Below are positions 26,890 to 44,127 of a stretch of 64,000 bases of DNA, piece after piece; position 1 is the first letter of the stretch, and each line of letters begins with the position of its first letter. The notes beneath the pieces are model-generated. The model saw only the letters and a list, made by a program, of their open reading frames with translations, was not told the DNA's origin and did no database searches. Origin of the DNA: Spirochaetales bacterium (GTDB taxonomy: Bacteria > Spirochaetota > Spirochaetia > JAIPGG01); assembly GCA_021736255.1 (NCBI GenBank), contig JAIPGG010000001.1:11506-75505 (forward strand). The letters are read 5' to 3'. The position numbers and the translations under genes are program-made.

Positions 26890-28173
26890 ATGCGTTTTGA
26901 TATGATGCATCCGCGAGATCAGATTGTTTCCTTTATGAAAAGAATCTATGGATACGGAATGACCACTACATCCGGTGGAAACCTCTCTATTATGGATGAA
27001 AACGGGGACATTTGGATTACGCCGGGAAGTGTTGATAAGGGATCCCTCAGGCCGGATGATATCGTCCGAGTGACACCCGACGGAACGGTGCACGGCAGAC
27101 GTAAGCCTTCTTCGGAATTCCCTTTCCACCAGGCTATATACCGGGCCCGGCCGGATGTGCACGCTGTGGTCCATGGCCATCCTCCGGCTCTGGTCTCTTT
27201 CAGTATTGTCCGCCGGATACCTGATACCAGGATCCTCCCGAAATCCCGGCAGATTTGCGGAGAGGTCGGCTTTGCCCCCTATGCTGTTCCTGGAAGCGAG
27301 GAGCTTGGAAAAAATATTTCCGAAACCTTTGAAAAGGGACACGATACCGTGCTGTTGGAAAACCATGGAATAGCCTGCAGCGGCAAGACGCTTCACCAGG
27401 CTTTCCAACGTTTTGAAACCCTGGATTTCTGTGCCCGCCTGATCATCCAGTCCCGTCAACTAGGGAGTCCGCAGGTGCTTAGCCAAGAGCAGCTGAATTT
27501 TATCAAAGGAGACTCTCACCTGCTGCCGGAGATTGACATAGAAAAGCGTTCCGGGAGGGAGCTCGAACTGCGGAAAGAGCTGGTAAAATTCATCCATCGT
27601 GCTTACCAGCAGATGCTTATCACCAGTACGGAAGGGACCTTTTCCGCCAGGATTTCGGACGACGAATTTTTAATAACCCCCTATGGGCTCGACCGCTATG
27701 AACTCGATCCTTCGGATTTTGTACTGATCAGAAATCTGAAACGGGAAAGGGGGAAGGTACCGAGCAGGTCCGTTCTGCTTCATCAAGAGATCTACCGGAG
27801 GCAGCCGGAAATAAACGCCGTAGTCATTGCTCATCCTACAAATGTTATGGCCTTCGGGATTTCCGGTGTACACTTCGATACAAGGACGATTCCGGAGAGC
27901 TATCTCTTTCTGCGGGACATTCCCTCGGTCCCTTACGGTACCCAGTACAAGGAACGGGAATGGGTTGCCGGCAAGATATCCCCCGAATCCCCGTTAATGA
28001 TAATTGAAAACGATGCGCTTATTACCTCAGGAAAGAGTTTGCTGCAGGCCTTTGATCTATTAGAGGTGGCTGAATACTCGGCTAAGTCGGTGGTTTTTGC
28101 ACAGCATCTGGGAGAAGTAAAAAAAATAAGCGATGAACAGGCTCAGCAGCTTGAGGATGCGTTCTGGTCCTGA
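26890..28173 (+). CDS. Fused tandem class II aldolase/adducin-domain protein (two L-fuculose-1-P aldolase / L-ribulose-5-P 4-epimerase-like domains in one polypeptide)
   Basis: Domain 1 (aa about 1-205) has 'GGNLSIMDENGDIWITPGSVDKG' and the Zn ligands 'VVHGHPPA'. Domain 2 (aa about 215-427) repeats the pattern ('STEGTFSARISDDEFLITPYG...') but shows 'VVIAHPTNV', with a single His. Confidence 0.7.
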   Translation: MRFDMMHPRDQIVSFMKRIYGYGMTTTSGGNLSIMDENGDIWITPGSVDKGSLRPDDIVRVTPDGTVHGRRKPSSEFPFHQAIYRARPDVHAVVHGHPPALVSFSIVRRIPDTRILPKSRQICGEVGFAPYAVPGSEELGKNISETFEKGHDTVLLENHGIACSGKTLHQAFQRFETLDFCARLIIQSRQLGSPQVLSQEQLNFIKGDSHLLPEIDIEKRSGRELELRKELVKFIHRAYQQMLITSTEGTFSARISDDEFLITPYGLDRYELDPSDFVLIRNLKRERGKVPSRSVLLHQEIYRRQPEINAVVIAHPTNVMAFGISGVHFDTRTIPESYLFLRDIPSVPYGTQYKEREWVAGKISPESPLMIIENDALITSGKSLLQAFDLLEVAEYSAKSVVFAQHLGEVKKISDEQAQQLEDAFWS

Positions 28174-28184
28174 AGAAAAAAATA

Positions 28185-28272
28185 CGGAGAGAGGGGGATT
28201 CGAACCCCCGGTACCCCGGAGGGTACACCTGATTTCGAGTCAGGCACGTTCGACCAGCTCCGTCATCTCTCC
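28185..28272 (-). tRNA. tRNA-Ser (anticodon CGA), class II with a long variable arm
   Basis: Reverse complement: GGAGAGA-UG-ACGG...CGU-CCUGA-CUCGAAA-UCAGG-[17-nt variable arm GUACCCUCCGGGGUAC]-CGGGGG-UUCGAAU-CCCCC-UCUCUCC-G. Acceptor and T arms pair perfectly, and the anticodon loop is CU-CGA-AA. Confidence 0.8.
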
Positions 28273-28556
28273 GTTTCTTTCGGGCCAGTATACACAAAGG
28301 TGAGCGATCTTTCCAGAGGGAAGGAAGGAGTTTTTTATGAGCTATACCGATTCTTCGAAAGCAGTTTCAGGTGGAAAGGCCCTCGAGGGCATCCGCATCT
28401 TCGACCTTATATCTCAATGGTTGACGGGCTGGAGGTCCTGATGGACGTACTGGGAATGGACCGGGAAGAGGCGGAAAAAGCTGCCGACAGCATCGCCTAG
28501 GCAGAGGAGTTATTTGTCGATTAACGTTCCACGTTCGCGGAGGATTCCACAAAAAA

Positions 28557-30104
28557 TTACCGATCCCTGGTGTACTCCACGAGTTTTCGGGATTCACTCT
28601 TCAGGGCATTGTAGGTTGCCTCGTATTGCCGCACGAACTCCTGGTAGTAGGCCGTCTTATCCCTGTCGGGCTGGATCGTTTTATTGATGCGTACCATTGC
28701 TTCCGCCGCCTTGTAAAGATCCGGGTAAATTCCTGCCGCTACCGATGCGCATATGGCGCTCCCGAGAGAGACCGCTTGTTGTTCCTCGGGGATGGTAATG
28801 GGTTTTCCGGTTACATCGGCGTGTATTTTCATCCACAGATCGCTTTGTGTAGCTCCCCCGCAGGTAATAATCTCGTCGATATGAAAACCCTCGTCTTCCA
28901 TTCTCTTGAGAATCACATTGGTGCCGTAGACTACTCCCTCCATAATGGCGCGGAAGATATGAGCCGGACCGTGTTTTAAGGTGAGCCCGCGAATGACGCC
29001 ACGGCTGTTTGGATCGATCCAGGGTGTACGGTTTCCCTGCCAGTGCTCTAGGACCAGAAGCCCTTCTGAGCCGGGTGGAAGCTCTTCTGCCCGTTCGTTG
29101 AGGATAGTATAAACCGAAACATTCCGTTTCTCCGCCTCTTCCTTGATTTCGGAGGAGAGGAAGTTATGAACGAACCAGTTGATGATCGATCCGGTTGAGA
29201 TTTGTCCCGCTTCAACCACCTGTACTCCCGGTACGATCGCATCCGGAAAGCTCCCGAATATGCCTTGTGCATGGATCTCTTTGTCGGAAAGGCCTATGTG
29301 GAGCTGAGAAGATCCGGTAATTATGGCGAGCTTGCCCGGTTTGAGGGCGTTTACTCCGATCACTCCGATATAGGCGTCAGCTCCTCCTGCTGCTACAGGA
29401 ATGCCGGCCGGAAGCCCTGTTTTTTCGGCAGCTTCTTTCGTTACCCTGCCGGCTGTTTCGCTGAGCGGCAAAACCCGAGAGGGCAGTTTTTCGAAGACCT
29501 CTTCTATCCCTATTTTCTCGTACAGGTCCTTTGGAAAGCCTCCGGCAGAATTGTTGTAAAACCAGCGAACAGAGGTGGTGTTTATGTTGGCTGTTATCTC
29601 GCCGGTCAGGCGATAGGTGATCCAATCAGTGTGTTCAAATATTGTATGTGCTTTATTATATACCTCGGGTTCGTTTCGCTTAACCCAGAGGACCTTGCAG
29701 GGGAACCATTCAGGCGAGAGGTTGCCGTAACCGATATAGGCTAAAGCGGGACTGTCGACGGCAGCAATATCTTCGGCCTCTTTCGTGGCCCGTATGTCCA
29801 TCCACATTATAGCATCTCGAAGCGGTTTTCCCGCTTTGTCGAGCATGATTACCGTGCAGCTGGTGCCGTCCAATCCGATTCCCTCTATTTCGGAGGGGTC
29901 TATAAATGAACCGCTAATGGCATTGCGGATTGCTTCGATGAGAGATTTGTCCCATTCAGCAACCGATTGCTCGGCCCAACCGGGATTTCGATGGATATTT
30001 TTATTGGCTGAAGTAGCGAAATTCAGGCACCGACCGGTTTCATCATATATCCCTGCGCGGATGCTCTCGGTGCCTGCATCAATTCCAAGTACGTAACGCG
30101 ACAT
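28557..30104 (-). CDS. FGGY-family carbohydrate kinase (pentulose/ribulokinase-like)
   Basis: N-terminal 'YVLGIDAGTESIRAGIYDETG' actin-like ATPase phosphate-1 motif. 515 aa. The 'GGGATQSDLWMKIHADVTGKPI' C-terminal FGGY signature is present. Confidence 0.8.
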   Translation of the reverse strand: MSRYVLGIDAGTESIRAGIYDETGRCLNFATSANKNIHRNPGWAEQSVAEWDKSLIEAIRNAISGSFIDPSEIEGIGLDGTSCTVIMLDKAGKPLRDAIMWMDIRATKEAEDIAAVDSPALAYIGYGNLSPEWFPCKVLWVKRNEPEVYNKAHTIFEHTDWITYRLTGEITANINTTSVRWFYNNSAGGFPKDLYEKIGIEEVFEKLPSRVLPLSETAGRVTKEAAEKTGLPAGIPVAAGGADAYIGVIGVNALKPGKLAIITGSSQLHIGLSDKEIHAQGIFGSFPDAIVPGVQVVEAGQISTGSIINWFVHNFLSSEIKEEAEKRNVSVYTILNERAEELPPGSEGLLVLEHWQGNRTPWIDPNSRGVIRGLTLKHGPAHIFRAIMEGVVYGTNVILKRMEDEGFHIDEIITCGGATQSDLWMKIHADVTGKPITIPEEQQAVSLGSAICASVAAGIYPDLYKAAEAMVRINKTIQPDRDKTAYYQEFVRQYEATYNALKSESRKLVEYTRDR

Positions 30105-30333
30105 GACTTCCTCCTCTTGTTTGTATTTGCTTTATGGTTTTTCATGCCTTTGTCTATTTCCTTTCGACTGTCATGTCGAATAAGTATAACACGGCTTTTT
30201 TGTTCAGGCTAATAAGTTTGAGGAGCCTTGGGGAACATTGGGGGCAGTCCGGAGTTGAGCTGGTGCAGGAGGTATTACCTTGACGGCTGCACAAGGGGGT
30301 TCTATAAAAAGAAGCAGGGGTGAAGGAGCAATT

Positions 30334-31956
30334 ATGGAAGCGTTTTTCGGGGTTGATATCGGGACTTACAGTTCAAAGGGAGTACTCGTAGACAGAGCAG
30401 GCACCATACAGGCTGAGTGCAGGCGGAGTCACGGACTCTCGGTGCCCAGGGCCGGATGGGCAGAACACGATGCAGATTCACTGTGGTGGGCTGATTTTTG
30501 TTCTCTTACAATCGAACTTTCACAGAAAGCCGACAGTCTTGGGTTGCAGCCTGCCGGGATCGGAATCAGTGCCATCGCTCCATGTGTCCTGCCGGTTGAC
30601 GAGCAAGGAAGGCCTCTGCGCCGGGGAATTCTCTACGGTATCGATACCCGGGCTTCTGAACAGATCAAGGCCATGGAAGCGGAACTCGGCAGTGAGCAGA
30701 TACGGAGGATCGCCGGATCCGGATTGGATTCTCAGTCTGCCGGTCCGAAGATACGCTGGGTCCGGGAGAACGAACCGGAGATCGCAGCGCAAACCAGGTA
30801 CTGGCTGACGTCGACAAGCTATCTCGTCTACCGGCTGACTGGACGGGCGGTGATCGACCGGTACACCGCTTCCTTTTTTCGGCCGCTTTACAATCTCGCG
30901 AAGGGCCGGTGGAGCGTCGAGGCGGCCGCATCCGTATGTCCGGTAGAACAGCTTCCCGAGCTCACGTGGACGACCGAGACCGCAGGAACCATCGGGCGGG
31001 AAGCCTCAAAAGCCTGTGGTTTGCCGGAGGGCCTGCCCGTTATCGCCGGTACGGCGGATGCGGCCGCAGAAGCAGTGAGTGCCGGGGTGCTCGAGCCGGG
31101 AGATTCGATGATCATGTTCGGATCGAGCCTGTTTATAATAACCTTGCACGATACACTGCAGCGTTCGAGTATTTTCTGGCCTGCGGTTTCTCTGTTTCCC
31201 GGAACCTGGGCTCTTACCGGGGGGATGGCCACCAGTGGTGCGGTAACTCAATGGATGAAAGACAACATCTTTGCGGGTATCGGCGGCTTCGATTCTGAAG
31301 CAGAGGCCGGAGCAGAACCCCGTTTTTCAGAACTGACGCGAAAGGCAGGAGAGGTACCTCCGGGAGCCGAGGGGCTGCTTATGCTTCCGTATATGAGCGG
31401 CGAACGGACTCCTGTTGATGATCCTCTGGCCCGGGGCGTATTGGCCGGTCTCAGTTTGCGGCACGGGCAGGCGCATCTATACCGGGCTGCGCTCGAGGCC
31501 GTGGGGTACGGCATACGCCACAACCTGGAAGAAATGGCCGGAGAGAGACGAATGGCCGGAGAGAAACTGAAGAAAAAAAACAACGGCGCTGAAGAAACTG
31601 CCGGCAGCCTGCAGAAAGCTGATCCTGGGGATGCCGGCGCCCTGGCGGTGGTCGGCGGAGGGGCGAAGAGCCCTGTCTGGATGCAGCTGGTAGCCGACAT
31701 TACCGGGAGAAGCCTTTCGGTGTTCCAAAGCGGCGGTGCCGCCTATGGCGACGCCATCCTGGCTGCCTACGGAACCGGGGTGTTTCCGAGTAGAAAGGCC
31801 GCGGCAGACTGGAAGCCCTCCCGGCATGGCTACCACCCGAATCCGGAGAATCGAAATCTGTATGACCGGTACTACCGCCGGTATCGAGAACTGTACGGGG
31901 CAACCGCCTCAATTGTTCATGAACTGGCCGGCGAGACGGAGACCCCTAAAGAATAA
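30334..31956 (+). CDS. FGGY-family carbohydrate kinase (xylulokinase-like) with a Lys-rich internal insertion
   Basis: 'FFGVDIGTYSSKGVLVD' phosphate-1 motif, and 'VVGGGAKSPVWMQLVADITGRSL' FGGY C-terminal signature. The listed ORF starts at 30280; I prefer the Met at 30334. Insert 'RRMAGEKLKKKNNGAEETAGSLQKADPGDA'. Confidence 0.75.
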   Translation: MEAFFGVDIGTYSSKGVLVDRAGTIQAECRRSHGLSVPRAGWAEHDADSLWWADFCSLTIELSQKADSLGLQPAGIGISAIAPCVLPVDEQGRPLRRGILYGIDTRASEQIKAMEAELGSEQIRRIAGSGLDSQSAGPKIRWVRENEPEIAAQTRYWLTSTSYLVYRLTGRAVIDRYTASFFRPLYNLAKGRWSVEAAASVCPVEQLPELTWTTETAGTIGREASKACGLPEGLPVIAGTADAAAEAVSAGVLEPGDSMIMFGSSLFIITLHDTLQRSSIFWPAVSLFPGTWALTGGMATSGAVTQWMKDNIFAGIGGFDSEAEAGAEPRFSELTRKAGEVPPGAEGLLMLPYMSGERTPVDDPLARGVLAGLSLRHGQAHLYRAALEAVGYGIRHNLEEMAGERRMAGEKLKKKNNGAEETAGSLQKADPGDAGALAVVGGGAKSPVWMQLVADITGRSLSVFQSGGAAYGDAILAAYGTGVFPSRKAAADWKPSRHGYHPNPENRNLYDRYYRRYRELYGATASIVHELAGETETPKE

Positions 31957-32002
31957 GGCGAGTAATGGAAAATGAACCGGAGAAAATGAAAGGAGAACAC
32001 TG

Positions 32003-33094
32003 ATGATTGATTCAATAGATCCGAGGTGGACAGATCTTGCAGATATTCTTGTAGAGTATTCTACCGGAGTAAAGGAAGGAGATTCTGTGCTGATACTCAT
32101 GCGGGAACTGCACACCTACCATCTTGCACGGGCGGTTGCTGGCGCTGCAGCGGTAAAAGGGGCCAGAGCTCAGGTGCTGTTTACTTCGGCAGAGCTCGAA
32201 GGGGACCTCATGCGGTTCGGTACCATGGAGATGATACACCGGGGCTCCGGAGCGGCTGAGGCGGCTATGAAGTGGGCAGATGTCTGTGTCGACCTTAGAG
32301 GTGCACACAATCTTGCTGCGTATTCCGGCATTTCACCCGAGCGGATGACCGGGCACCGGAAGGCGGAGGGCCGGCTCTCCGCCCTGCGAACTTCAACGAC
32401 TCGCTGGGTGATTGTCCGGGTTCCCTCTCCTGAGTTTGCCCAGCAGGCCGGGAAGTCTTTTGATGCGGTGATGGGGGAGTTTTTTACATCTGTTCTTCTG
32501 GATTGGGAATACGAATCGGAGAAATATCATCAATTGGCAAAGGTTCTGGAGGGGGCAAAGGAAATACGAATTGAAACACCCGACACGAAGCTTGTTATGT
32601 CTACCGAAGGCAGAACCTACCTCGTTGAAGACGGACACATTAATATGCCCGGTGGAGAGGTGATGTCCTCGCCGGTAGAGGATAGTGTAAATGGAATCAT
32701 TGCCTTCGAAGAGCCGGCGGTCTATTGGGGAGAACTGGTATATGGGTTGAAACTCGAATTCCGGAATGGACGGGTTGTTGATTTCGAAGCCCGGACGAAT
32801 CAGGATCTCATGTACAGACTTCTTGATATGGATGAGGGAGCCCGTGGAGTCGGCGAATTTGCCTTTGGCGTGAATCGGCGGATAACCGGTTTTGCGAAAG
32901 ATATTCTTCTGGATGAGAAGATATTCGGAACGGTACACATAGCTCTCGGAAGATCATACGCCGAATGCGGGGGAAAGAACCAATCCGCTCTACACTGGGA
33001 TATTATTAAAGACATTCGCCGAGGCGGGAAGGTGCTTGTCGACGGAATTGTGGTGCTTGAAGACGGACGCTATCCAGCGCTTGATTTGGCATGA
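32003..33094 (+). CDS. M29-family aminopeptidase (AmpS/aminopeptidase T-like)
   Basis: 363 aa. The C-terminal 'FGTVHIALGRSY...GGKNQSALHWDII' resembles the M29 thermophilic metalloprotease metal-binding region. Moderate confidence from pattern only. Confidence 0.5.
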   Translation: MIDSIDPRWTDLADILVEYSTGVKEGDSVLILMRELHTYHLARAVAGAAAVKGARAQVLFTSAELEGDLMRFGTMEMIHRGSGAAEAAMKWADVCVDLRGAHNLAAYSGISPERMTGHRKAEGRLSALRTSTTRWVIVRVPSPEFAQQAGKSFDAVMGEFFTSVLLDWEYESEKYHQLAKVLEGAKEIRIETPDTKLVMSTEGRTYLVEDGHINMPGGEVMSSPVEDSVNGIIAFEEPAVYWGELVYGLKLEFRNGRVVDFEARTNQDLMYRLLDMDEGARGVGEFAFGVNRRITGFAKDILLDEKIFGTVHIALGRSYAECGGKNQSALHWDIIKDIRRGGKVLVDGIVVLEDGRYPALDLA

Positions 33095-33235
33095 GCGGGA
33101 TGCATGCATGATTCCGGCGGAAAACAAGTAGTGTATAGTAACCCTGCAGGCAAGCATTTTGCCTCGTATTACGCAGTCAACCCGATGGCATTTTTCTCCC
33201 GCCGGTGATCGGAGTATGAAGCCGGTATCCGAAGC

Positions 33236-34045
33236 TTATGTTCTGATTTGATTTACCTTATCCATGAGTTTCTTTACTCGCGCAACCTCCACCTGGTTCC
33301 AGGTAACCCCGTCCTTTTTTAGACTGGTTCCTACAACAGCCCCGTCGGCTGCCGAAAGGAGGTCGTCGGCGGTCTCTACCTTTAACCCCGTGTTGATAAA
33401 TACCGGTATGGATACCCCCCGCTTCACCTCTTCGACGTTCTTGCCGGTAGGCGCTTGACCGGTTAACGGACCGGATACCAGAATGGCATCTGCAAGAGAA
33501 GAAAATTCGACGCTCTTCGCAATTATATCGAGAGGTCTGTTGTCGAGTCTGGATGCGAATTCGGCAAAGATGTTGAAAAAGACCGCAACATGATCCGCAT
33601 TGATCTGTTTTCGATAGCGATACACTTCCCCGACCTGTGTATTCCAGAAACCCATGTCTGAAATGTAGGCCCCGCTTACGATTTCCCGAATGAATTGAGC
33701 TCCGGTCGCTTTTGCCAGCGCCAGTGCCGCTTTTGCATCCCAGAGTACATCTACTCCATACGGAACGGTAATCTGATCCCGGACGGCATTGATCGCCCCG
33801 CTCATTGCTGCAACCGCCATGAAATCGGCATTGAATGTATACGGCCTGTCGTTTTCGTTGCAGAACATTACCGCATCGATTCCGCCCTCCTGTAATGCGA
33901 GAAGATCCTCACGGATTATTCGATAGATGTCCTCGAGGGTTTGCTTTGATTCATCGTATAAAGGTGTCCCCGGCAAAGGGGGAAAGTGAACCATTCCAAT
34001 AATGATTTTGCTCTTTTTACCGAAAATTTTCGTCAAATCGATCAT
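33236..34045 (-). CDS. BtpA/SgcQ-family TIM-barrel protein
   Basis: N-terminal 'KIIIGMVHFPPLPGTPLY' matches the BtpA family signature (IGMVHL-PLPGSP-Y); 269 aa. Confidence 0.75.
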   Translation of the reverse strand: MIDLTKIFGKKSKIIIGMVHFPPLPGTPLYDESKQTLEDIYRIIREDLLALQEGGIDAVMFCNENDRPYTFNADFMAVAAMSGAINAVRDQITVPYGVDVLWDAKAALALAKATGAQFIREIVSGAYISDMGFWNTQVGEVYRYRKQINADHVAVFFNIFAEFASRLDNRPLDIIAKSVEFSSLADAILVSGPLTGQAPTGKNVEEVKRGVSIPVFINTGLKVETADDLLSAADGAVVGTSLKKDGVTWNQVEVARVKKLMDKVNQIRT

Positions 34046-34094
34046 AATTTGCTCCTTTTACCCGGTAATTGCGGGATATCTTAATCATTGTACC

Positions 34095-34170
34095 ACAAAT
34101 ATGCGCAAGTCAAGCATGAAATGTGCAAAATCTGAACACTTTTTGCTGTACTTGTGCGCAAGTCCGTGCT
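34095..34170. promoter_or_regulatory. Divergent promoter/operator region between btpA/sgcQ and the DeoR regulator, with a 10-bp direct repeat TGCGCAAGTC present twice
   Basis: 'tgcgcaagtc' at 34101..34110 and 34154..34163, plus a related 'tgtgcaaaat' at 34121; AT-rich context. Candidate DeoR operators. Confidence 0.3.
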
Positions 34171-34182
34171 AAGATTTTATTC

Positions 34183-34998
34183 ATGAGCGATCCGAATCCA
34201 CAGGCCCAGGGAGCTACGGCCTTTATCCGCAACCGGGACAGGCTGGACCAGATCTACCGGGTAGTACGGGAAGAGGGGAATGCCTCGGTCAGCTTTCTGG
34301 CGCACCACTGCAAGGTCTCGGAATCCACCATCCGAAGAGACATAAACAATATGCTGGCAATGGATTCATACCCCAATCTCGAACGGGTTCACGGGGGAGT
34401 AGTAATATCTCGCCGGGAGGAGGATGCCTCCCTTATGTTCGATCTCAAATTCGACCTTGCCCGGCCGGAGAAAGAAGCAATTGCTGCGGAGGTGGTTCTC
34501 AAGCTCCATGACGGAGAAAGCATTGCCCTCGATACCGGCACTACGTGTCTGCTGATTGCTCGAAGGCTCGAACAGCTTTCCGGGCTGAAGGTTATCGCCA
34601 CCGATGTAAAGGTTGCAGAGCAGCTCGGTCAGTTTCCCGACATAGAGACGGTTGTTGCCGGCGGATTGATACGTCCGGCATATTTCGGCGTCGGCGGAGC
34701 CGCCAGCATCGAGTTCCTCGATCAGTTTCGGGTCGATACGGCGATTATCGCTGCGGATTCGGTGGACCCTGAAGATGGAATCACCAACCGCTCGCTCTTC
34801 GAGGTCGGAGTCAAACGCAAACTCATGGAAATTGCCAGGCGCGTCATATTAGTAGCTGATTCTTCAAAAATCGGTAAACGTTCGCTCTATCGGGTTTCAG
34901 ACTTTCATGGCATCGAACGTCTTATCACCGACCGCGGCCTTTCTGATGAATATGTAGTCGCATTTCGTGAACGAGGATTACAGGTCGATCTCGTCTGA
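34183..34998 (+). CDS. DeoR/GlpR-family transcriptional repressor (HTH plus sugar-phosphate-binding DeoR C-terminal domain)
   Basis: The N-terminal HTH region 'HHCKVSESTIRRDIN' and a C-terminal DeoR-type sensor domain ('IALDTGTTCLLIARRL', 'AIIAADSVDPEDGITN') are present. I prefer the start at Met 34183 ('MSDPNPQ') over the listed 34123. Confidence 0.75.
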   Translation: MSDPNPQAQGATAFIRNRDRLDQIYRVVREEGNASVSFLAHHCKVSESTIRRDINNMLAMDSYPNLERVHGGVVISRREEDASLMFDLKFDLARPEKEAIAAEVVLKLHDGESIALDTGTTCLLIARRLEQLSGLKVIATDVKVAEQLGQFPDIETVVAGGLIRPAYFGVGGAASIEFLDQFRVDTAIIAADSVDPEDGITNRSLFEVGVKRKLMEIARRVILVADSSKIGKRSLYRVSDFHGIERLITDRGLSDEYVVAFRERGLQVDLV

Positions 34999-35164
34999 GT
35001 TGTGTTGACACGGGATGCGGCCAGGATTGAATACAAAGGGTTTTTGTTATAAACGGTCCGGACCGGAATCGGAGATCCTTTCAAATGATTAGGTGATCCG
35101 TTTTTCAGCTCGGCCCGAAAACCCCGACACGTTGTGTCGGTGAAACTGCACAAGATGGAGGTGC

Positions 35165-36220
35165 ATGATGAAAAAAGGACTACTAATTCTTTTCATGGTG
35201 CTTGCTGTATCCGCTTTGGTGTTTGCGGGCGGACAACAGGAAGGAGAAAAAGCCGCCGAAGAATCAGGCGAAGAACAATTCGAGATCGCCATGGTTGTAA
35301 AGCTGGAAGGAGTTGCCTGGTTCGACAACATGAGGCTCGGCATACAGGATTTCAACAGTGATTTCGATGATGTAAATGCCTATCAGATCGGCGCGGATAC
35401 GGCGGACCCTGCTGCTCAGGTGGCTTTGGTAGAGGACCTGATCGCGAAGGGTGTTGATGCTATACTGGTTGTTCCGAATGATCCGGAATCACTTGTACCG
35501 GCGTTCAAAAAAGCGAACAATGCAGGAATTCTCACGTTTACTCATGAAGCTTCCGTACAGCGGCAGGTCAGCTATGATGTCGAGGCTTTCGACAACACTG
35601 CATACGGCCGCCACATGATGGATGTTATGGCTGATTGGATGGATGAAGAAGGGGTATGGCAGCCCTTTGTCGGGCACTTGACTTCGACGACCCACAATGA
35701 ATGGGTTGATGGAGAAATTGCTCAGGCACAGGAAAAGTATCCCAATCTAAAACAGGCAACCAACCGGATCGAAGAGAAGGAAAACCAGCAGATCGCTTAT
35801 GAAAAGGCTCTCGAACTTCTCAAGACCTATCCTGATATAGAAGCAATGATGGGAAGTGCAATGAGCACCGTACCCGGCGTTGCACAGGCGATCGAGGAAA
35901 AGGGGCGGATCGGTAAAGTTGCTGCGTTCGGTACGTGTCTGCCATCGGTAGCAGGCGATTATCTGGAAAGCGGAGCGGCAAAGTCGATTCACTTCTGGGT
36001 ACCGGCAGACGCCGGCTATGTCACTGCTCATGCGGCATATCTCTCCCTCAAGGGTGAAGAAATCAAGGAAGGCATGGATCTCGGAAAACCCGGTTATGAA
36101 AGCATCACCATACAGAAGAACGACTCCGGAGTACCTGTTATTTATGGACAGGCCTGGGTAGACGTTAATAAAGACAACCTCGATGAATGGAAAGATGCCG
36201 ACGGCAATTACAAGCTCTAA
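35165..36220 (+). CDS. Sugar ABC transporter periplasmic substrate-binding lipoprotein (PBP1 family; ribose/AI-2 LsrB-like)
   Basis: Signal peptide plus a 'GGQQEGEKAAEE' linker; 'IAMVVKLEGVAWFDNMRLG', 'KGVDAILVVPND' typical of periplasmic binding protein type 1. Confidence 0.75.
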   Translation: MMKKGLLILFMVLAVSALVFAGGQQEGEKAAEESGEEQFEIAMVVKLEGVAWFDNMRLGIQDFNSDFDDVNAYQIGADTADPAAQVALVEDLIAKGVDAILVVPNDPESLVPAFKKANNAGILTFTHEASVQRQVSYDVEAFDNTAYGRHMMDVMADWMDEEGVWQPFVGHLTSTTHNEWVDGEIAQAQEKYPNLKQATNRIEEKENQQIAYEKALELLKTYPDIEAMMGSAMSTVPGVAQAIEEKGRIGKVAAFGTCLPSVAGDYLESGAAKSIHFWVPADAGYVTAHAAYLSLKGEEIKEGMDLGKPGYESITIQKNDSGVPVIYGQAWVDVNKDNLDEWKDADGNYKL

Positions 36221-36240
36221 ACCAATACCGGCATATTTAC

Positions 36241-36276
36241 GGCAGTCTCGTCATAACGGCGGGGCTGCCTTTCTTG
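36241..36276 (+). promoter_or_regulatory. Intercistronic stem-loop between the SBP and ATPase genes (possible partial terminator/attenuator)
   Basis: 'GGCAG-tctcgtcataacggcgggg-CTGCC' followed by 'TTTCTT'. This is the common arrangement in ABC operons, giving SBP over-expression. Confidence 0.2.
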
Positions 36277-36295
36277 TCCGGGGAGAAGGGAAATT

Positions 36296-37813
36296 ATGAG
36301 TGAAGCCATATTAGATGTGCGTAATATCACAAAAACCTTCGCCGGGGTAACGGCCCTTAAAAATGTGGATCTAAAGATTGATGTCGGAGCAATTCATTGT
36401 CTCGTGGGAGAGAACGGTTCCGGAAAGTCCACCCTTATTAAGATTATTGGTGGAGTTCTTCAACCGGATTCAGGTTCGGTCACTATTAACGGGGTTGCAT
36501 ATGATAGTCAAAACCTCCGTGCAATCGAGGCTATTCGGGGCGGTATACAGATCATCTATCAGGATCTTGCCCTTTTTCCGAACTTATCGGTGGTGGAAAA
36601 TATCTCGATGAACCAGATGGTCGAGGCCAACGATAAATTGATCAAGTGGAAAGAGGCTTATGAGATCGCTGGACAAGCTCTGAGTCGAATTGAAGAAGAG
36701 ATCGATCTGAACGAGAAGGTCGAAAATCTTTCGATGGCTAAACAGCAGATTGTAGCGATAACCCGTGCTCTTACACAGAATGCACGGCTCGTGATTATGG
36801 ACGAGCCCACTTCTGCAATTACGCGGGAGGATGTAGACCATCTGTTTCGGGTAATACTTCGATTGAAGAAAATGGGCATTGCTACACTCTTTGTCAGCCA
36901 TAAGTTGAGCGAGGTGTTCGAGATTGCGGAAGAGGTTACCGTTATTCGGGACGGAAATAAAGTAGGGGATTATCCAGCTGGAGAATTGGACAACGACAAA
37001 CTTACCAATCTCATGACCGGTCGTATGATCGAATACAAGCCTTACTTCTATCAGGATACGGAACCGGAAAAGCCGAATCTCCTCGAGGTACGTAACCTGC
37101 AAAAGAGTGGTCAGTATGAAAAAATTTCCTTTACCCTGCGCAGAGGAGAGATACTGGGGATCACGGGCTTGATTGGCTCGGGGCGGACTGAAACGGCACT
37201 CTCCCTTTTCGGGATAAACCCTCCCGATGAAGGGGAAATTATAATCGACGGGAAACCGGTTGTAATTCATTCAACACATGATGCGATCCGCCACGGAATC
37301 GGCTATCTTCCGGAAGACCGGCTGAATCAAGGGCTTTTTCAGGAGCATCCGATCACCGACAACATAGTTGTTACGGTGCTGAAGAGGCTTTTGGACAAGA
37401 GGGGACTCATAAACTCTGAGAAACGGAAAACTGAAGGGAACCGTTGGATCAAAGAGCTCAGCATCAAAACCCCTTCCGGGGAGAATCCTGCCAACAGTCT
37501 TTCCGGGGGGAATCAACAACGTGTAGTATTGGCAAAATGGCTCGCCACGAACCCGAAAATATTCATTCTCGACGGACCGACAATAGGAATCGACATCGGA
37601 TCGAAGAGTACAATTCACGATATAATCCGTCGGCTTGCCGGAGAAGGGATGGGAATCATTATGATATCGGATGAGATCCAGGAGGTGCTTCAGAACTGCA
37701 ACCGGGTTCTGGTCATGTACAAAGGAAGACTCGTTCGAGAGATTCCCAATGCCGCCGAAGCGGATGAAGATGACGTGTTTGCAGCTGTCAGCGGAACCAG
37801 CGGGGGTGTGTGA
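36296..37813 (+). CDS. Sugar ABC transporter ATP-binding protein with two fused ABC domains (RbsA/MglA/LsrA-like)
   Basis: Walker A 'GENGSGKST' and a second 'GLIGSGRTE'; ABC signatures 'LSMAKQQIV' and 'LSGGNQQRV'; Walker B 'LVIMDEPT'/'IFILDGPT'. Confidence 0.85.
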   Translation: MSEAILDVRNITKTFAGVTALKNVDLKIDVGAIHCLVGENGSGKSTLIKIIGGVLQPDSGSVTINGVAYDSQNLRAIEAIRGGIQIIYQDLALFPNLSVVENISMNQMVEANDKLIKWKEAYEIAGQALSRIEEEIDLNEKVENLSMAKQQIVAITRALTQNARLVIMDEPTSAITREDVDHLFRVILRLKKMGIATLFVSHKLSEVFEIAEEVTVIRDGNKVGDYPAGELDNDKLTNLMTGRMIEYKPYFYQDTEPEKPNLLEVRNLQKSGQYEKISFTLRRGEILGITGLIGSGRTETALSLFGINPPDEGEIIIDGKPVVIHSTHDAIRHGIGYLPEDRLNQGLFQEHPITDNIVVTVLKRLLDKRGLINSEKRKTEGNRWIKELSIKTPSGENPANSLSGGNQQRVVLAKWLATNPKIFILDGPTIGIDIGSKSTIHDIIRRLAGEGMGIIMISDEIQEVLQNCNRVLVMYKGRLVREIPNAAEADEDDVFAAVSGTSGGV

Positions 37814-38826
37814 TTATGCTGAAAAACCTTTTCAAATCAACCGAGTCCTATCTGCTGATCGTTCTTTTGGCCTTTATTGTAGTGGTCGGTTTTATAAACC
37901 CGAAATTCTTCACCATAGAGAACCTGTTTGACCTGCTCAGAAGCAGTTCAGGTATGGCAATACTGGCGATGGGGTTCTTTATCGTTCTTTTGTCCGGCGG
38001 GATCGATGTTTCGTTTACCGCCATTGCTATTAGCGCTCAGTACATTGCCGTGAATTCTCTCATCGCATCGGGGGTGGACAACCTGGCGGTTGCTTTTCTC
38101 ATTGCCGTGGGTGTGGGGATTGCCGCAGGTGCAATCAATGCTGTGTTTATCGGCCTGTTCAACGTGCCCACCCTTATCACCACGCTGGGAACAATGAGCC
38201 TGTTTCATGGAGCGCTCTTGGAGTTCATGGGAACGAAAGCGGTAAACACCGGCGGGCTTCCGGAATGTTTTAAGACCTTCGGGCATTTCGACATTCTGAA
38301 TCTTACCCGGGCTGACGGTACTGAATACGGGCTCTCTGTTTTCTTCCTCATACTCGTAATCGTTGTGGTGGTTACCTGGTTCATTCTCAAATATACGCAA
38401 ATCGGCCGCGGTGTATATGCAATCGGAGGTAACAAGGAAGCAGCAAAACGGGCCGGCTTCAATATTCCCAAGATCCAGTTCTTCATATACATGTATGTTG
38501 GTTTACTGGCCGGCATTATGGGAATTATGCATGTTTCTCTGATTCGCTACAGCAATCCCAATTATATTGTGGGTAGTGAACTCGGGGTAATTGCAGCGGT
38601 TGTAATCGGGGGAACGCGAATTACCGGCGGCCGCGGGACTATTCTCGGCACCCTGGTGGGAGTAGGACTCATTGTGGTTCTCGAAAAAAACCTGGTGCTC
38701 ATCGGATTATCCTCGTACTGGCATCAGTTTTTTATCGGGCTGATTATCATCATCGGTGTCAGTATAACGTATCTGCAAAACAAGATTCGCAGTAAAAAGA
38801 ACTTGATCTTTGTTCGGGATACCTGA
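37810..38826 (+). CDS. Sugar ABC transporter permease (RbsC/LsrC-like)
   Basis: 338-aa polytopic membrane protein. It has a 4-nt overlap with the ATPase gene and the typical branched-chain/ribose permease pattern. Confidence 0.8.
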   Translation: MIMLKNLFKSTESYLLIVLLAFIVVVGFINPKFFTIENLFDLLRSSSGMAILAMGFFIVLLSGGIDVSFTAIAISAQYIAVNSLIASGVDNLAVAFLIAVGVGIAAGAINAVFIGLFNVPTLITTLGTMSLFHGALLEFMGTKAVNTGGLPECFKTFGHFDILNLTRADGTEYGLSVFFLILVIVVVVTWFILKYTQIGRGVYAIGGNKEAAKRAGFNIPKIQFFIYMYVGLLAGIMGIMHVSLIRYSNPNYIVGSELGVIAAVVIGGTRITGGRGTILGTLVGVGLIVVLEKNLVLIGLSSYWHQFFIGLIIIIGVSITYLQNKIRSKKNLIFVRDT

Positions 38827-38854
38827 TCATGAATGTAGGAACGGGAGTTAGCGT

Positions 38855-39886
38855 ATGAAGCTTACAATCAAGAATATGCAGAACTTTGTCCTGTTTGTTA
38901 TCCTCTTAGCTGTGGTTGCCGTTATTTCGATTTCCCTGCCGGATAAGTTCTTGACTGCAATCAATTTTCAATCCATGACCAGCCAATTTCCCGAATTCGG
39001 TTTGATGGCCCTTGCTATGATGATGGCAATGATAACCGGCGGTATCGATCTCTCGGTGGTTTCCGTCGCAAACCTATCGGGAGTAATGGCCGCTCTGGTG
39101 TTGACCTCTCAGTTAGGCGCAGACGGCGGAATTTCCGCTACTATGTTGATTGTTTTGGCGATTATTGTAGCACTTGTTACCTCGGTTGTGGCAGGAGCGA
39201 TTAATGGATTAATTATTACATTAGCCGGAGTGCCGGCTATCTTGGCAACCTTAGGAACTCAGGGTCTCTTTTTGGGCATAGCAATCGTAATCACCGAAGG
39301 GCACAGCATCAGCGGTTTCCCACCGGAGTATCTCTTTGTCGGAATGGGGCAAATATTGGGATTGCCTATGCCGTTGGTCATCTTTTTGATCACGATAGCG
39401 TTGCTGCTGGTAATTATGAAGAAAACCCGTCAGGGGTTTAATATGTACGTGGTAGGCGCTAATCCTATTGTTTCACGGTTTTCGGGAGTGAACAATACGA
39501 GAGCCCTGATTCAGACATACATGTTGACCGGTCTTATGGCGGGTATTGCCTCGATAATCATAATCTCCAGGGTTAATTCTATGCGTCCCGGCTACGGTTC
39601 CGCCTATCTGCTGCAGGCAGTTTTGGTAACCGTTATGGGGGGCACCGATCCCCGGGGCGGATTTGGTAATGTTTTCGGTGTGGTTATGGCGGTTGTAATC
39701 CTGCAGGTTATTCAAAGTGGATTGAATATTATGTCGTTCAGTCCATTTTTCAAAAACTTTACCTGGGGCTTTATGCTGCTGCTGATTATGGTAATAAACT
39801 TCTATTTGAATAGATATCAGCAAGGAAGGCGAATAGCAGAAACAAAGAAGCGGGTAGCGGCGGAAGCGTCTGGCAATTCACCCTAA
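38855..39886 (+). CDS. Sugar ABC transporter permease (second subunit, LsrD-like)
   Basis: 343-aa polytopic membrane protein, paralogous to the preceding permease. Confidence 0.8.
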   Translation: MKLTIKNMQNFVLFVILLAVVAVISISLPDKFLTAINFQSMTSQFPEFGLMALAMMMAMITGGIDLSVVSVANLSGVMAALVLTSQLGADGGISATMLIVLAIIVALVTSVVAGAINGLIITLAGVPAILATLGTQGLFLGIAIVITEGHSISGFPPEYLFVGMGQILGLPMPLVIFLITIALLLVIMKKTRQGFNMYVVGANPIVSRFSGVNNTRALIQTYMLTGLMAGIASIIIISRVNSMRPGYGSAYLLQAVLVTVMGGTDPRGGFGNVFGVVMAVVILQVIQSGLNIMSFSPFFKNFTWGFMLLLIMVINFYLNRYQQGRRIAETKKRVAAEASGNSP

Positions 39887-39974
39887 AGGAAAGCTAGAGT
39901 AAGGCGGCGCTGAGTCTGTCTCATGTATCGCAGGACCGGAAAGAAGGCGGGCTGGTATATTTCAAAGCTTAACA

Positions 39975-40040
39975 GACAGCAGCCCGCACAAATTGTACTG
40001 TCCTGACAAATTGTGCCGCTCAAATAGACAGTGCCGCCAA
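39975..40040. promoter_or_regulatory. Candidate operator upstream of the E1-alpha gene: interleaved direct repeats (C/G)ACAAATTGT(A/G)C x2 and GACAG(C/T)(A/G)(G/C)C(C/G)GC x2
   Basis: 'cacaaattgtac' at 39988..39999 and 'gacaaattgtgc' at 40005..40016; 'gacagcagcccgc' at 39975 and 'gacagtgccgcc' at 40027. Confidence 0.25.
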
Positions 40041-40100
40041 TACCGATAGAATAGGAAGGAGAAAACGAGCACAAAGATTTATCAACGGGGAGAAGTGGAT

Positions 40101-41102
40101 ATGGGAAAGAATGATATTGACTCGCGAACCAAGCGTTCCTTGCTGAGGACGATGGTTCGAATACGGGAGTTTGAAGACAGCGTCGGAGAAATGCACCTCC
40201 GCGGTTTAACGGCGGGGTCAATGCTTCACTTGTCGGTAGGAGAAGAAGCGATTGCAGCCGGAATCGGTTTGGCAATGCAGGAAGGTGATGTTTTTACGAC
40301 TCATCATAGAGGGCACGGGATTTTCATCGCGAGAGGCGGTGAAATGAACAGGATGATGGCCGAAATTTTCGGAAAATCAGATGGATATTGCCGCGGGAAA
40401 GGCGGTTCGATGCACATTGCAGATGTTCATTACGGGCATTTGGGGGCAAACGCTATAGTAGGTGGAAATATTGCCATAGCGATGGGTGGCGGTTTTACTC
40501 AGAACTATCGGAAAACCTCCAATGTAAGCGTCGCCTTTTTCGGCGACGGTGCCTTGAATCAAGGTGTCCTGTACGAATCGATGAACATGGCTGCTCTCTG
40601 GGATTTGCCGGTGATGTTCGCTGTTGTTAACAATCAGTACGGGATGGGAACCCGAATCGACAGAGCCTCCGCCAGTCAGGAATTCGTCAAGCGCGGTGAG
40701 AGCTTTGGGCTGCGCTCCTTGCAGGTGGACGGAATGGATGTGGAAGCGGTCTATCAGGGGGCGAATCGGCTTTTTGAACACAGCAGGTCCGGAAAAGGGC
40801 CGACGTTTTTTATATGTGATGCATACAGGTTTTACGGTCATGGACGAAAAGATCCTAGCCCCTATCGGGAAAAGAACGAAGAGAAAAAATGGTGGGACCG
40901 CGATCCGATTCCCGCCTATAAAGATACATTGATCTCAGCTGATCTGATTTCAGATGCTGATTATCAGGAAGATCTTGATGCTGCCAAAGCCGAGGTTGCT
41001 GATGCTGTTGAGTTTGCCAAGAATTCGCAGGTGCCGGAGGAAAACGACTTGTACACCTATGTCTATGTTGATCCGATTGATGCTTCCGGGACTATCGGCT
41101 GA
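40101..41102 (+). CDS. TPP-dependent 2-oxoacid/acetoin dehydrogenase E1 component, alpha subunit
   Basis: TPP-binding 'FFGDGALNQGVLYESMNMAALWDLPVMFAVVNNQYG' (GDG...N motif). A GGAG RBS precedes the ATG at 40101; the listed ORF begins at GTG 40095. Confidence 0.8.
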   Translation: MGKNDIDSRTKRSLLRTMVRIREFEDSVGEMHLRGLTAGSMLHLSVGEEAIAAGIGLAMQEGDVFTTHHRGHGIFIARGGEMNRMMAEIFGKSDGYCRGKGGSMHIADVHYGHLGANAIVGGNIAIAMGGGFTQNYRKTSNVSVAFFGDGALNQGVLYESMNMAALWDLPVMFAVVNNQYGMGTRIDRASASQEFVKRGESFGLRSLQVDGMDVEAVYQGANRLFEHSRSGKGPTFFICDAYRFYGHGRKDPSPYREKNEEKKWWDRDPIPAYKDTLISADLISDADYQEDLDAAKAEVADAVEFAKNSQVPEENDLYTYVYVDPIDASGTIG

Positions 41103-41122
41103 AGCGGGGAAGGAGAGCGCAT

Positions 41123-42097
41123 ATGAGTGTCATGATGTATCGAGAGGCTTTACGCCTTGCTTTATATGAAGAGATGAAGCGGGATGACCGTGTGTTTCTG
41201 GCCGGAGAGGATGTTGGGTCATATGGTGGGGCTTATGCCGTTTCCCGCGGATTGATCCAGGAATTCGGGTCTGAACGGCTAGTGGGTACACCTATCAGTG
41301 AGGCTGCAATAATTGGAATGGGCATCGGAGCGGCAATGACCGGTTTAAGACCTGTCGTTGAACTGATGTATATCGATTTCGTCGGACTTGCAATGGATCA
41401 AATTGCCAATCAGGCGGCGAAATTCCGGTATATGAGCGGCGGTCAACTCAAGATCCCCATGGTTATGCGGATGCAGGGCGGGACCGGACGATCTGCCGGC
41501 GCACAACACTCACAGAGCCTCGAGGCATGGCTGGTTCATATCCCCGGGCTCAGGGTGGTAATGCCCGCTTCCGCCCGGGATGCCCGGGGGCTGCTCAAAA
41601 CGGCAATTCGCAGCGATGACCCGGTGGTTTTTATCGAGCACAAGGGCCTGTATGCCAAAAAAGAAGAGGTTCCCGAAGAGGAAGAGCTCGTGCCATTCGG
41701 AAAGGCCCGAATAGCCCGTTCGGGTTCGGATGTAACCCTCATCACCTATTCACGAATGGTGTATACTGCTCTTGAAGCGGCCGAAGAGGCGTCTGCGGGG
41801 GGAATCGACGTAGAGGTGATTGATCTCAGAACGCTCAACCCCCTCGATTATCATACGATCGAGAAATCGGTTCGAAAAACCGGGACGGTTGTTGTAGCAT
41901 ATGAGGCACATCGAAACGTCGGGATGGGAAGCGAAATCAGCGCCCGTATCGGGGAAGAACTCATGGATGTTTTGAAGCATCCGGTTGTTCGCATCGGTGG
42001 CAAGGATGTACCGATACCCGCTACGGTTCTCGAGAAGTATTCGATTCCCCAGAAGCAAGACCTTCTCGAAGGGATTGAACAGGCCGCAGGTCGTTAA
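41123..42097 (+). CDS. TPP-dependent dehydrogenase E1 component, beta subunit (transketolase-like pyrimidine-binding and C-terminal domains)
   Basis: 324 aa; 'EAAIIGMGIGAAMTGLRPVVELMYIDF' is the typical E1-beta. Confidence 0.8.
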   Translation: MSVMMYREALRLALYEEMKRDDRVFLAGEDVGSYGGAYAVSRGLIQEFGSERLVGTPISEAAIIGMGIGAAMTGLRPVVELMYIDFVGLAMDQIANQAAKFRYMSGGQLKIPMVMRMQGGTGRSAGAQHSQSLEAWLVHIPGLRVVMPASARDARGLLKTAIRSDDPVVFIEHKGLYAKKEEVPEEEELVPFGKARIARSGSDVTLITYSRMVYTALEAAEEASAGGIDVEVIDLRTLNPLDYHTIEKSVRKTGTVVVAYEAHRNVGMGSEISARIGEELMDVLKHPVVRIGGKDVPIPATVLEKYSIPQKQDLLEGIEQAAGR

Positions 42098-42141
42098 TCT
42101 CTGAAGCCGGGAAACCGGTACATGAAGAAAGGAGCTAGTGT

Positions 42142-42393: not shown

Positions 42394-42396
42394 ACG

Positions 42397-43041: not shown

Positions 43042-43094
43042 TTGACGAAGGAATTTGGCCGGGAGAACGGAAACGATAGATTAATACAAAGGAG

Positions 43095-44111: not shown

Positions 44112-44127
44112 ACCGAACTGGAGGTGA

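Follow-up and report, generated by a model that had tools for sequence, protein, structure and literature searches.

A conserved Spirochaetales gene cluster that probably imports and degrades a ribulose-like five-carbon sugar

The RefSeq annotation of Escherichia coli MG1655 lists the sgcXBCQAER operon with the genes sgcX (M42 peptidase family), sgcB, sgcC, sgcQ, sgcA, sgcE (similar to ribulose-phosphate 3-epimerase, RPE) and sgcR (DeoR family). The substrate and the biochemistry of this sgc system are not established, as stated in papers from 2017 and from July 2026. Uptake of D-ribulose has been described for the AauA/Rbl system of enterohaemorrhagic E. coli (EHEC) and Citrobacter rodentium (PMC12307932). 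The binding protein AauA of EHEC was crystallized with alpha-D-ribulose (structure 9I1M; dissociation constant 2 uM), which is contacted by residues K37, W43, E118, H167, E196 and S223 (PMC12307932). Here we describe a gene cluster that shares features with both systems. It occupies positions 28557-45930 of a 64,000-nucleotide stretch of DNA (the window) from Spirochaetales bacterium (assembly GCA_021736255.1, contig JAIPGG010000001.1, positions 11,506 to 75,505 of the forward strand). The cluster probably imports and degrades a ribulose-like five-carbon sugar by means of three types of enzymes without assigned function. We consider it rather likely that it is a vertically inherited and conserved catabolic locus of a Spirochaetales bacterium. 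The small ketose degraded by it would most likely be a D-ribulose-like ketopentofuranose or a related sugar in substituted or deoxy form.

Genes were identified from a list of open reading frames (ORFs), by ARAGORN for tRNAs, by Pfam domains and by NCBIfam equivalog and subfamily models with their cut-offs. The conserved unit of about 17 kb comprises two FGGY kinases (FGGY1 and FGGY2), an M29-like metalloenzyme, a BtpA/SgcQ protein, a DeoR-type regulator, an ATP-binding cassette (ABC) importer, E1alpha and E1beta together with a free lipoyl protein, DhaK and DhaL, and an aldo-keto reductase (AKR). The window is part of a metagenome-assembled genome, and its aldolase, BtpA and E1alpha showed 100% identity to NCBI proteins listed under Spirochaetales bacterium. 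All genes listed in a first-pass annotation of the window were present at the same coordinates and on the same strands according to ORFs, ARAGORN and Pfam. The gene for the AKR and a C_GCAxxG_C_C gene were added to that list.

Conservation of the gene set in related loci

Related loci were found by locating relatives of three anchor proteins (a fused class II aldolase encoded upstream of the cluster, BtpA and E1alpha) and their neighbours. The same 15 genes, named as AKR, binding protein, ATPase, two permeases, BtpA, M29-like protein, FGGY2, FGGY1, E1alpha, E1beta, lipoyl protein, DhaK and DhaL, were present in three further assemblies (L088/L089, L094 and L093, the latter with frameshifts), and a subset was found on the short contig L002. 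Order and orientation of these genes varied between the loci, and the regulator was either of the LacI type or missing. Proteins of the related clusters were 43-81% identical to those of the window. The ABC ATPase and the permeases showed 51-67% identity, and the AKR, which was located inside the cluster every time, showed 74-81% identity in L002, L088, L093 and L094. The divergent FGGY1/FGGY2 pair was retained in L088. The genes for E1alpha, E1beta and the lipoyl protein were kept within the cluster in L088, L093 and L094. Neither the fused aldolase nor a tRNA gene was found in the L088/L089, L094, L093 and L002 loci, and the C_GCAxxG gene was absent from L088 and L094. The retention of the set through rearrangement is our main argument that region 28557-45930 is one functional unit and that region 26890-28273 lies outside of it. 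In the first-pass annotation a single block had been drawn that started with the fused aldolase and a tRNA-Ser gene. The part from the first FGGY kinase through the Dha genes, now extended by the AKR, stood up as one functional block, since its gene set recurs in reshuffled form, while the aldolase and the tRNA-Ser gene had to be removed from it.

A second type of cluster was found in L106, L108, L110, L112 and L117 (L108-type). It consists of an RPE-FGGY1-HIBADH operon, a C_GCAxxG gene, the genes DeoR-BtpA-M29-FGGY2, and a convergent operon for the binding protein, the ABC genes, DhaK, DhaL and a cupin similar to Ureidogly_lyase. Common to both types of clusters are an AauA-like ABC importer, FGGY1, BtpA together with M29-like protein and FGGY2, and DhaK/DhaL, which were found in every full-length related cluster, while the E1/lipoyl genes and the AKR are restricted to the spirochaete type. 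In the window the C_GCAxxG_C_C gene (42397-43041, minus strand; Pfam 3e-20) encodes a putative redox-active protein and is an accessory member of the cluster. Homologues with 47-50% identity adjoin DeoR-BtpA in L106, L107, L108, L110, L114 and L117. A distant variant is represented by L104 (3398-12575), in which genes for E1alpha and E1beta, an E2 with the full set of lipoyl, E3-binding and catalytic domains, a SorC regulator, RPE and a single-domain class II aldolase are divergent from BtpA-M29-FGGY2. L104 is the sole related locus in which a gene of the class II aldolase family joins BtpA, M29-like protein and FGGY2.

Some features were seen in single relatives of the cluster. In L088 a Ureidogly_lyase-like cupin gene, of the same kind as in the L108-type clusters, follows DhaL. 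In L094 a gene for a dCache-type methyl-accepting chemotaxis protein (18772-20949) is divergent from the binding-protein gene of the cluster and adjoins it, which hints at chemotaxis towards the same sugar. In L093 (ENA ERZ25039513) the genes for BtpA, AKR, one permease and FGGY1 were split, and E1beta was called as a fusion with the lipoyl domain. We attribute this to probable frameshift errors in the assembly; true pseudogenes or a true fusion are less likely.

The BtpA triad and the sgc operon

The M29-like protein (363 amino acids (aa); 32003-33094, plus strand; Pfam Peptidase_M29, 1.6e-55) is encoded next to the BtpA/SgcQ protein (269 aa; 33236-34045, minus strand; Pfam BtpA, 1.9e-70). 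The gene for the DeoR-family regulator (271 aa; 34183-34998, plus strand, ORF from 34123; Pfam HTH_DeoR and DeoRC) is divergent from BtpA. We scanned metagenome contigs with the M29-like protein and mapped all proteins of the window onto the matches. Of the 19 metagenomic loci with at least 600 bp of upstream sequence, 15 had BtpA directly upstream of the M29-like gene and in the same orientation; among them were all 14 loci with an M29-like protein of at least 40% identity. Downstream sequence of at least 800 bp was available for 23 loci, and in 17 of these a kinase of the FGGY2 type followed the M29-like gene. Among 63 genome loci an FGGY kinase adjoined BtpA in 33 and a DeoR gene in 23. When the kinase next to BtpA was of the FGGY2 type (at least 38% identity), a gene for an M42 peptidase was also present (4 of 5 genome loci). 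These results showed that BtpA, the M29-like protein and FGGY2 form a triad that is the core of the cluster.

M29 and M42 are unrelated families, and no similarity was detected between the M29-like protein and SgcX. Because two non-homologous proteins of this kind fill the same genomic role, we suggest that an aminopeptidase-like activity is required in this role and is not incidental. The M29-like protein is distant from AmpT, AmpS and PepS: the match to AmpT (5e-12) covers only the C-terminal half. It retains the motifs E, E, H and HxD, which line up with the metal ligands of these three enzymes, and orthologues of the protein also match the NicX family.

BtpA passed the NCBIfam model TIGR00259 (score 243, cut-off 153). 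Its confident AlphaFold2 model (predicted local distance difference test score 93.8) is a (beta/alpha)8 barrel. Foldseek retrieved remote phosphate-binding barrels only (ThiE, GGGPS, RPE, HisF/HisA, TrpC/TrpF and HPS) with template modelling scores of 0.5-0.63 (0.54-0.63 for ThiE, GGGPS, RPE, HisF and HPS) and 13-16% identity, so that no specific reaction can be transferred to BtpA. A search of the BtpA sequence against the PDB gave no match. About 50 positions are invariant, and most of them are polar. Because of these positions, the phosphate-binding neighbours of the fold and the constant partnership with a kinase or a phosphotransferase system (PTS), BtpA is most simply regarded as a putative enzyme acting on a phosphorylated sugar. 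There are thousands of BtpA/SgcQ proteins in many phyla, including those of rhizobial megaplasmids and of E. coli. They had been described as having no assigned function in the first-pass annotation, and our literature searches likewise revealed no function for BtpA/SgcQ.

Comparison with the cryptic sgc operon revealed 43% identity of BtpA to SgcQ over the full length (E 4e-67) and 35% identity of the DeoR regulator to SgcR (E 4e-52). Based on these values, we regard the cluster as a variant of the sgc type. In both cases a dinuclear-metal aminopeptidase-like protein is encoded together with the other enzymes, although M42 SgcX and the M29-like protein are not homologous and are functional analogues at best. 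SgcE, the RPE homologue of E. coli, has counterparts in the relatives L104, L106, L108, L110 and L117, but an RPE homologue is present nowhere in the window. E. coli takes up and phosphorylates the sugar with a galactitol-type PTS (IIA/IIB/IIC), whereas the window has an ABC importer and two FGGY kinases, and additionally E1alpha/E1beta with the lipoyl protein, DhaK/DhaL, the AKR and the C_GCAxxG protein. Protein comparison thus showed that the cluster is an ABC-plus-kinase counterpart of the sgc type, which is the closest known system. The sgc operon is a closer relative than the Lsr or pentose modules that had been considered in the first-pass annotation.

BtpA also occurs in widespread DeoR-BtpA-FGGY-SDR modules (SDR, short-chain dehydrogenase/reductase) of Thermotogae, Thermoanaerobacter, Thermus, Rhizobium and Chloroflexi. 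As in the window, BtpA adjoins an FGGY kinase under a DeoR regulator, and genes for an oxidoreductase and for a sugar ABC transporter are also present. These modules differ from the cluster by an SBP_bac_1-type binding protein with BPD_transp_1 permeases, by the SDR, by a kinase with only about 30% identity to FGGY2, and by the lack of M29 or M42. We observed the module in L095 (Rhizobium leguminosarum pRlvE), L096 (a Thermus thermophilus plasmid), L090 and L091, often near genes of the inositol-monophosphatase family or glycerol-phosphate genes. BtpA homologues were found on 189 plasmid records, mostly from rhizobia.

Substrate, proposed pathway and alternative explanations

The periplasmic sugar-binding protein (35165-36220, plus strand; Peripla_BP_4) shares 42% identity with 5BRA and 36% with AauA. 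It keeps five of the six residues by which AauA contacts D-ribulose, as K46, W52, E128, H177 and E206. The pocket is therefore predicted to be AauA-like, and as a lead, this points to a D-ribulose-like furanose. The first-pass annotation had spoken of an uncharacterised sugar; given the AauA-like pocket, the question is less open than it had appeared. The importer type of the binding protein is the same as in the AauA/Rbl system. The Rbl system also pairs the transporter with an FGGY D-ribulokinase, similar to FGGY1 and the transporter of the window, but AauA/Rbl loci consist of the transporter, to which at most one kinase and an isomerase are added (PMC12307932), while the cluster conserves eight further enzyme genes.

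The other importer genes follow on the plus strand. As identified by Pfam and NCBIfam, the first of them (36296-37813) encodes an ATPase in which the ATP-binding domain occurs twice, and the next two (37810-38826 and 38855-39886) encode BPD_transp_2 permeases. A hairpin with a strong 12-bp stem is located at 36241-36269, between the genes for the binding protein and the ATPase. A hairpin directly after a binding-protein gene is the usual arrangement that yields an excess of binding-protein transcript.

FGGY1 (515 aa; 28557-30104, minus strand; Pfam FGGY_N and FGGY_C) is similar to ribulokinases and pentulose kinases. Its highest scores were those with the ribulokinase model NF003154 (373.9; cut-off 428) and the pentulose kinase model TIGR01315 (320.9; cut-off 408.7). 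The best PDB match was AraB (3QDK, 8e-78). FGGY1 is 62-74% identical in L088, L094 and the L108-type loci. In L094 it shares an operon with the ABC genes, and in the L108-type loci it does so with an RPE homologue. We read FGGY1 as a putative kinase for the imported pentulose. Residues A96, K208, D274 and E329 of AraB, which we take to be substrate residues, correspond to S, R, D and E in FGGY1; this mapping fits a ketopentose kinase and is not diagnostic. FGGY2 is a XylB-like kinase (Pfam) with a score of 274 with the NCBIfam model for XylB (cut-off 380), and its best PDB match was 3IFR, a structure of unassigned specificity. Its most likely start is the ATG at 30334 (540 aa; 30334-31956, plus strand), which is also used in the gene call of an identical Logan contig; the ORF opens with TTG at 30280. 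With this start the divergent spacer between the kinases (30105-30333) is 229 bp long, in agreement with the about 230 bp noted previously. No convincing shared operator was found in the spacer.

The genes downstream of the importer are on the plus strand, apart from the C_GCAxxG gene. They encode E1alpha (40095-41102; Pfam E1_dh), E1beta (41123-42097; Transket_pyr/Transketolase_C), a free lipoyl-domain protein of 83 aa (42142-42393; Biotin_lipoyl), DhaK (43095-44111; Dak1), DhaL (44128-44754; Dak2) and, as the last gene of the block, the AKR (361 aa; 44845-45930; Aldo_ket_red, 3.9e-78). The GDG...NN motif of E1alpha for thiamine pyrophosphate (TPP), the TDKM motif with the lipoyl-lysine, and the motifs GIHGEPG and DGDxG of DhaK and DhaL are present. 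With their catalytic or cofactor motifs kept, E1alpha, the lipoyl protein, DhaK, DhaL and the M29-like protein look functional, as judged from sequence. The module resembles acetoin and pyruvate dehydrogenase (PDH) complexes in its heterodimeric TPP-dependent E1alpha/E1beta and in a lipoyl domain with the lipoyl-lysine motif. It differs from them since the lipoyl domain is a free protein, the E2 catalytic domain and E3 are missing, and the module is located inside a sugar cluster. Among the related loci a full E2 was found only in the distant L104. Our literature search for a combination of E1, Dha kinase and FGGY kinase returned nothing. DhaK and DhaL resemble the DhaKLM system including the active-site motifs, but a DhaM/PTS domain is present neither in the block nor in the related clusters. 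At the NCBIfam equivalog level DhaL alone passed, and barely (TIGR02365, 138.8; cut-off 138.3), while BtpA and E1beta passed subfamily models only. An E1alpha/E1beta/free-lipoyl module with 65-68% identity was also observed in a different anaerobic sugar cluster (L092, GCA_963991725.1, 1-19000). This cluster, a separate and uncharacterised pathway, has the same type of ABC importer as the window. It further encodes a PfkB kinase, an SDR, a GFO/IDH/MocA dehydrogenase, an aldehyde:ferredoxin oxidoreductase, two glycyl-radical enzymes along with activases, and a SorC regulator.

We infer the substrate and the reactions of BtpA, the M29-like protein and E1, and propose the following route. The sugar would be imported by the ABC transporter with its AauA-like binding protein, and FGGY1 would phosphorylate it to a pentulose phosphate that is able to enter the pentose-phosphate pathway. 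FGGY2 might phosphorylate this sugar too, but at a different position, or might act on a related form. BtpA could isomerise, epimerise or cleave the sugar phosphate derived from FGGY2, and the M29-like dinuclear metalloenzyme could strip a substituent or carry out a metal-dependent step. A free triose or short ketose released in this way would be phosphorylated by DhaK/DhaL. E1alpha/E1beta may transfer a two-carbon acyl unit to the free lipoyl protein in a TPP reaction of the acetoin or the 2-oxoacid type, and the AKR may reduce an aldehyde by-product. The SgcR-like DeoR protein would control the locus. The cluster could thereby specify a complete uptake-to-triose pathway, as the first-pass annotation had put it. 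An E1 cleavage that yields glyceraldehyde for DhaK/DhaL was also considered; this idea was weakened, since the L108-type clusters keep DhaK/DhaL without E1.

Several observations weigh against a catabolic locus for a D-ribulose-like ketose. The sixth contact of AauA, S223, is replaced by Met in the binding protein and likewise in 5BRA. Plain D-ribulose needs one kinase only, and the gene set thus implies a more unusual substrate than the comparison of the pockets. Deletion mutants of the E. coli sgc genes showed no growth defect on 190 carbon sources (July 2026 paper), and the sgc comparison therefore gives no substrate. The kinases, E1alpha and DhaK (TIGR02363, 384.8; cut-off 406) stayed below the equivalog cut-offs, and so did the fused aldolase outside the cluster; names such as ribulokinase are therefore not transferable. 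The best PDB match of E1alpha was a mitochondrial-type PDH E1alpha (6e-56), and judged from this likeness E1alpha may simply act on pyruvate or another 2-oxoacid. An E2 catalytic domain, E3 and DhaM are not encoded in the block. The L108-type clusters have no E1 and no AKR, which makes both accessory rather than core components. In the seven intergenic regions we found no shared DeoR operator that would tie the transcription units to the DeoR protein. The best shared 12-mer, AATACAAAGGAG, was present in four of the seven regions compared to at most three in shuffles, but it was rejected as an operator since it overlaps ribosome-binding sites.

We weighed these data for three other explanations. 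The region could consist of three adjacent units that do not share a pathway: a ribulose-type ABC transporter with a kinase, a PDH- or acetoin-type E1 with the lipoyl protein, and a dihydroxyacetone kinase with a reductase. A scan for promoters and terminators gave results at chance level, which agrees with such an assembly, as do the missing shared operator, the second context of the E1/lipoyl module in the glycyl-radical cluster of L092, and the L108-type relatives that lack E1 and the AKR. Yet L088, L093 and L094 have kept all three units side by side despite a new gene order and different regulators, DhaK/DhaL are found in both cluster types, and the AKR remains inside the cluster, and we consider it unlikely that the units are unrelated. 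The locus could also be a classical pentose module of a ribulokinase and an AraD-like epimerase/aldolase, with the fused aldolase as pathway enzyme and an island located at tRNA-Ser, as framed earlier. The catalytic residues in the N-terminal half of the aldolase and the ribulokinase-like FGGY1 are in line with this, and the distant L104 has a single-domain class II aldolase and RPE beside E1 and BtpA-M29-FGGY2. But orthologues of the fused aldolase occur in unrelated contexts, the L088, L093, L094 and L108-type loci have no aldolase, no compositional shift, integrase or att repeat was detected, and the tRNA has the wrong orientation for integration. The scores with the AraB model (TIGR01234, 309.5; cut-off 583) and the AraD model (TIGR00760, 68.8; cut-off 389) were far below the cut-offs. 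This makes a classical pentose module very improbable, and membership in the AraBAD type was rejected on these scores, on the lack of an isomerase gene and on the aldolase-kinase linkage, which is not conserved.

An Lsr-like system for uptake and processing of autoinducer-2 (AI-2), in which E1/lipoyl and DhaK/DhaL replace LsrF and LsrG, would agree with the locus in the class of transporter and in the superfamily of the kinases. LsrB is a relative of the binding protein (E 4e-24), and LsrK is one of FGGY1 (3e-50 to structure 5YA0). The Met at the position of AauA S223 and LsrB A222 is hydrophobic and suits a methyl rather than a hydroxymethyl group, and an acetoin-type E1 could cleave a 1-deoxy acyloin. 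The LsrB signature is reportedly K35, D116, D166, Q167, P220 and A222; of these six residues only K35 is kept, with K46, E128, T176, H177, S231 and M233 at these positions of the window protein in alignments to 5GTA and 1TJY. The LsrK model NF008187 (cut-off 528) gave 237 for FGGY1 and 111 for FGGY2, and the LsrB model NF011937 gave 98.6 (cut-off 384). AauA and 5BRA are far nearer relatives of the binding protein than LsrB. As had been noted in the first pass with respect to LsrF, LsrG and a DeoR instead of a SorC regulator, no domains of LsrF, LsrG or a SorC-type LsrR were found among the genes of the block. Membership in the Lsr type was rejected due to the lost signature residues, the model scores and the missing LsrF, LsrG and LsrR, and we give an AI-2 system very little credence. 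The previous view that the cluster matches neither Lsr nor AraBAD was upheld by the model scores and the LsrB signature. Given the Met at the S223 position, the substrate may still be a deoxy sugar.

For the D-ribulose-like ketose locus that we favour, a broader idea can be put forward, tentatively and with considerable doubt. The triad of BtpA/SgcQ, an M29- or M42-type metalloenzyme and FGGY2 (or a PTS) may define a widespread and undescribed route for a modified ketopentose, for example a 1-deoxy-pentulose or a sugar derived from AI-2, or else ribulose with a substituent on N or O, as in a ribulosamine (Amadori-type) conjugate. The peptidase-like enzyme would remove the substituent, BtpA would be a new barrel enzyme that converts sugar phosphates, and in the spirochaete variant the acetoin-type E1 with the free lipoyl protein would cleave the sugar acyloin oxidatively. 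If this is true, sugar splitting by E1 and free lipoyl would be a way that has not been described so far, and the E. coli sgc operon would obtain its first substrate. The locus is a more tractable version of the sgc type: its binding protein is soluble and open to direct ligand screening, soluble kinases stand in for a PTS, and the extra conserved enzymes (DhaK/DhaL, E1/lipoyl and AKR) constrain the possible products. Solving it would assign functions to BtpA/SgcQ, to short M29-like proteins and to the pairing of E1 and free lipoyl protein that is found in sugar clusters of anaerobes. We regard the locus as a good lead for enzyme discovery and not as a surprise in kind.

Fused aldolase, tRNA-Ser and flanking genes

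The fused class II aldolase (26890-28173, plus strand) contains two Aldolase_II stretches (Pfam). Its orthologues (54-65% identity, about 428 aa) are widely distributed stand-alone genes in Spirochaetota, KSB1 and Caldicoprobacter. Their neighbours encode a UvrA-like protein and a pseudouridine synthase, phosphofructokinase and fructose-bisphosphate aldolase (Caldicoprobacter), or a HAD phosphatase and pyruvate phosphate dikinase, and never a sugar-uptake cluster. Together with the lack of the gene in the related clusters, these unrelated contexts spoke against the aldolase as a member of the block, and we judged it to be outside. For this gene, the unrelated contexts are the outcome that the first-pass annotation had named as a refutation. 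The N-terminal half retains the catalytic set of FucA (equivalents of E73, H92, H94 and H155) and appears active. In the C-terminal half, three of the four catalytic residues are lost (S, I, H and D at these positions), and it is predicted to be a degenerate pseudo-domain.

The tRNA-Ser(CGA) gene (28184-28273, minus strand; ARAGORN) was also judged to be outside of the cluster. It had been suggested as an acquisition site, with a shift in GC content or codon usage to be looked for at 26.8 and 46 kb. There was no step in GC, in GC at third codon positions (GC3) or in codon usage at these borders. GC varied from 0.46 to 0.58 in 2-kb windows over the whole window, and each gene of the block fell within the spread of the flanking genes in GC, GC3 and codon-usage distance. 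No integrase or transposase gene was found in the flanks, and neither an att-like repeat of the tRNA end nor long flanking repeats were detected. Islands that target tRNA genes integrate at the 3' end of the tRNA. The 3' end of tRNA-Ser faces the aldolase, and the cluster is on the 5' side, which is the wrong side for an acquisition at this gene. A genomic island linked to the tRNA was thus rejected with regard to integrase, att repeat, compositional shift and location.

The genes on either side have no relation to the cluster. Upstream (18923-23658) there are three genes for peptidases of the M3, trypsin-like and M20 types. A bidirectional terminator-like hairpin (46006-46020) lies past the AKR gene, and the genes that follow on the minus strand (46066-49097) specify the binding protein, the permease and the CBS-domain ATPase of an ABC transporter for glycine betaine of the OpuA type; MarR and tRNA-Ala come next. 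A folate enzyme and a methyltransferase are also encoded in the flanks. In the 283-bp gap between tRNA-Ser and the stop codon of FGGY1 (28274-28556) we observed two short ORF fragments, 'MSYTDSSKAVSGGKALEGIRIFDLISQWLTGWRS*' and '...MVDGLEVLMDVLGMDREEAEKAADSIA*' (asterisk, stop codon), which look like the head and the tail of a decayed gene.

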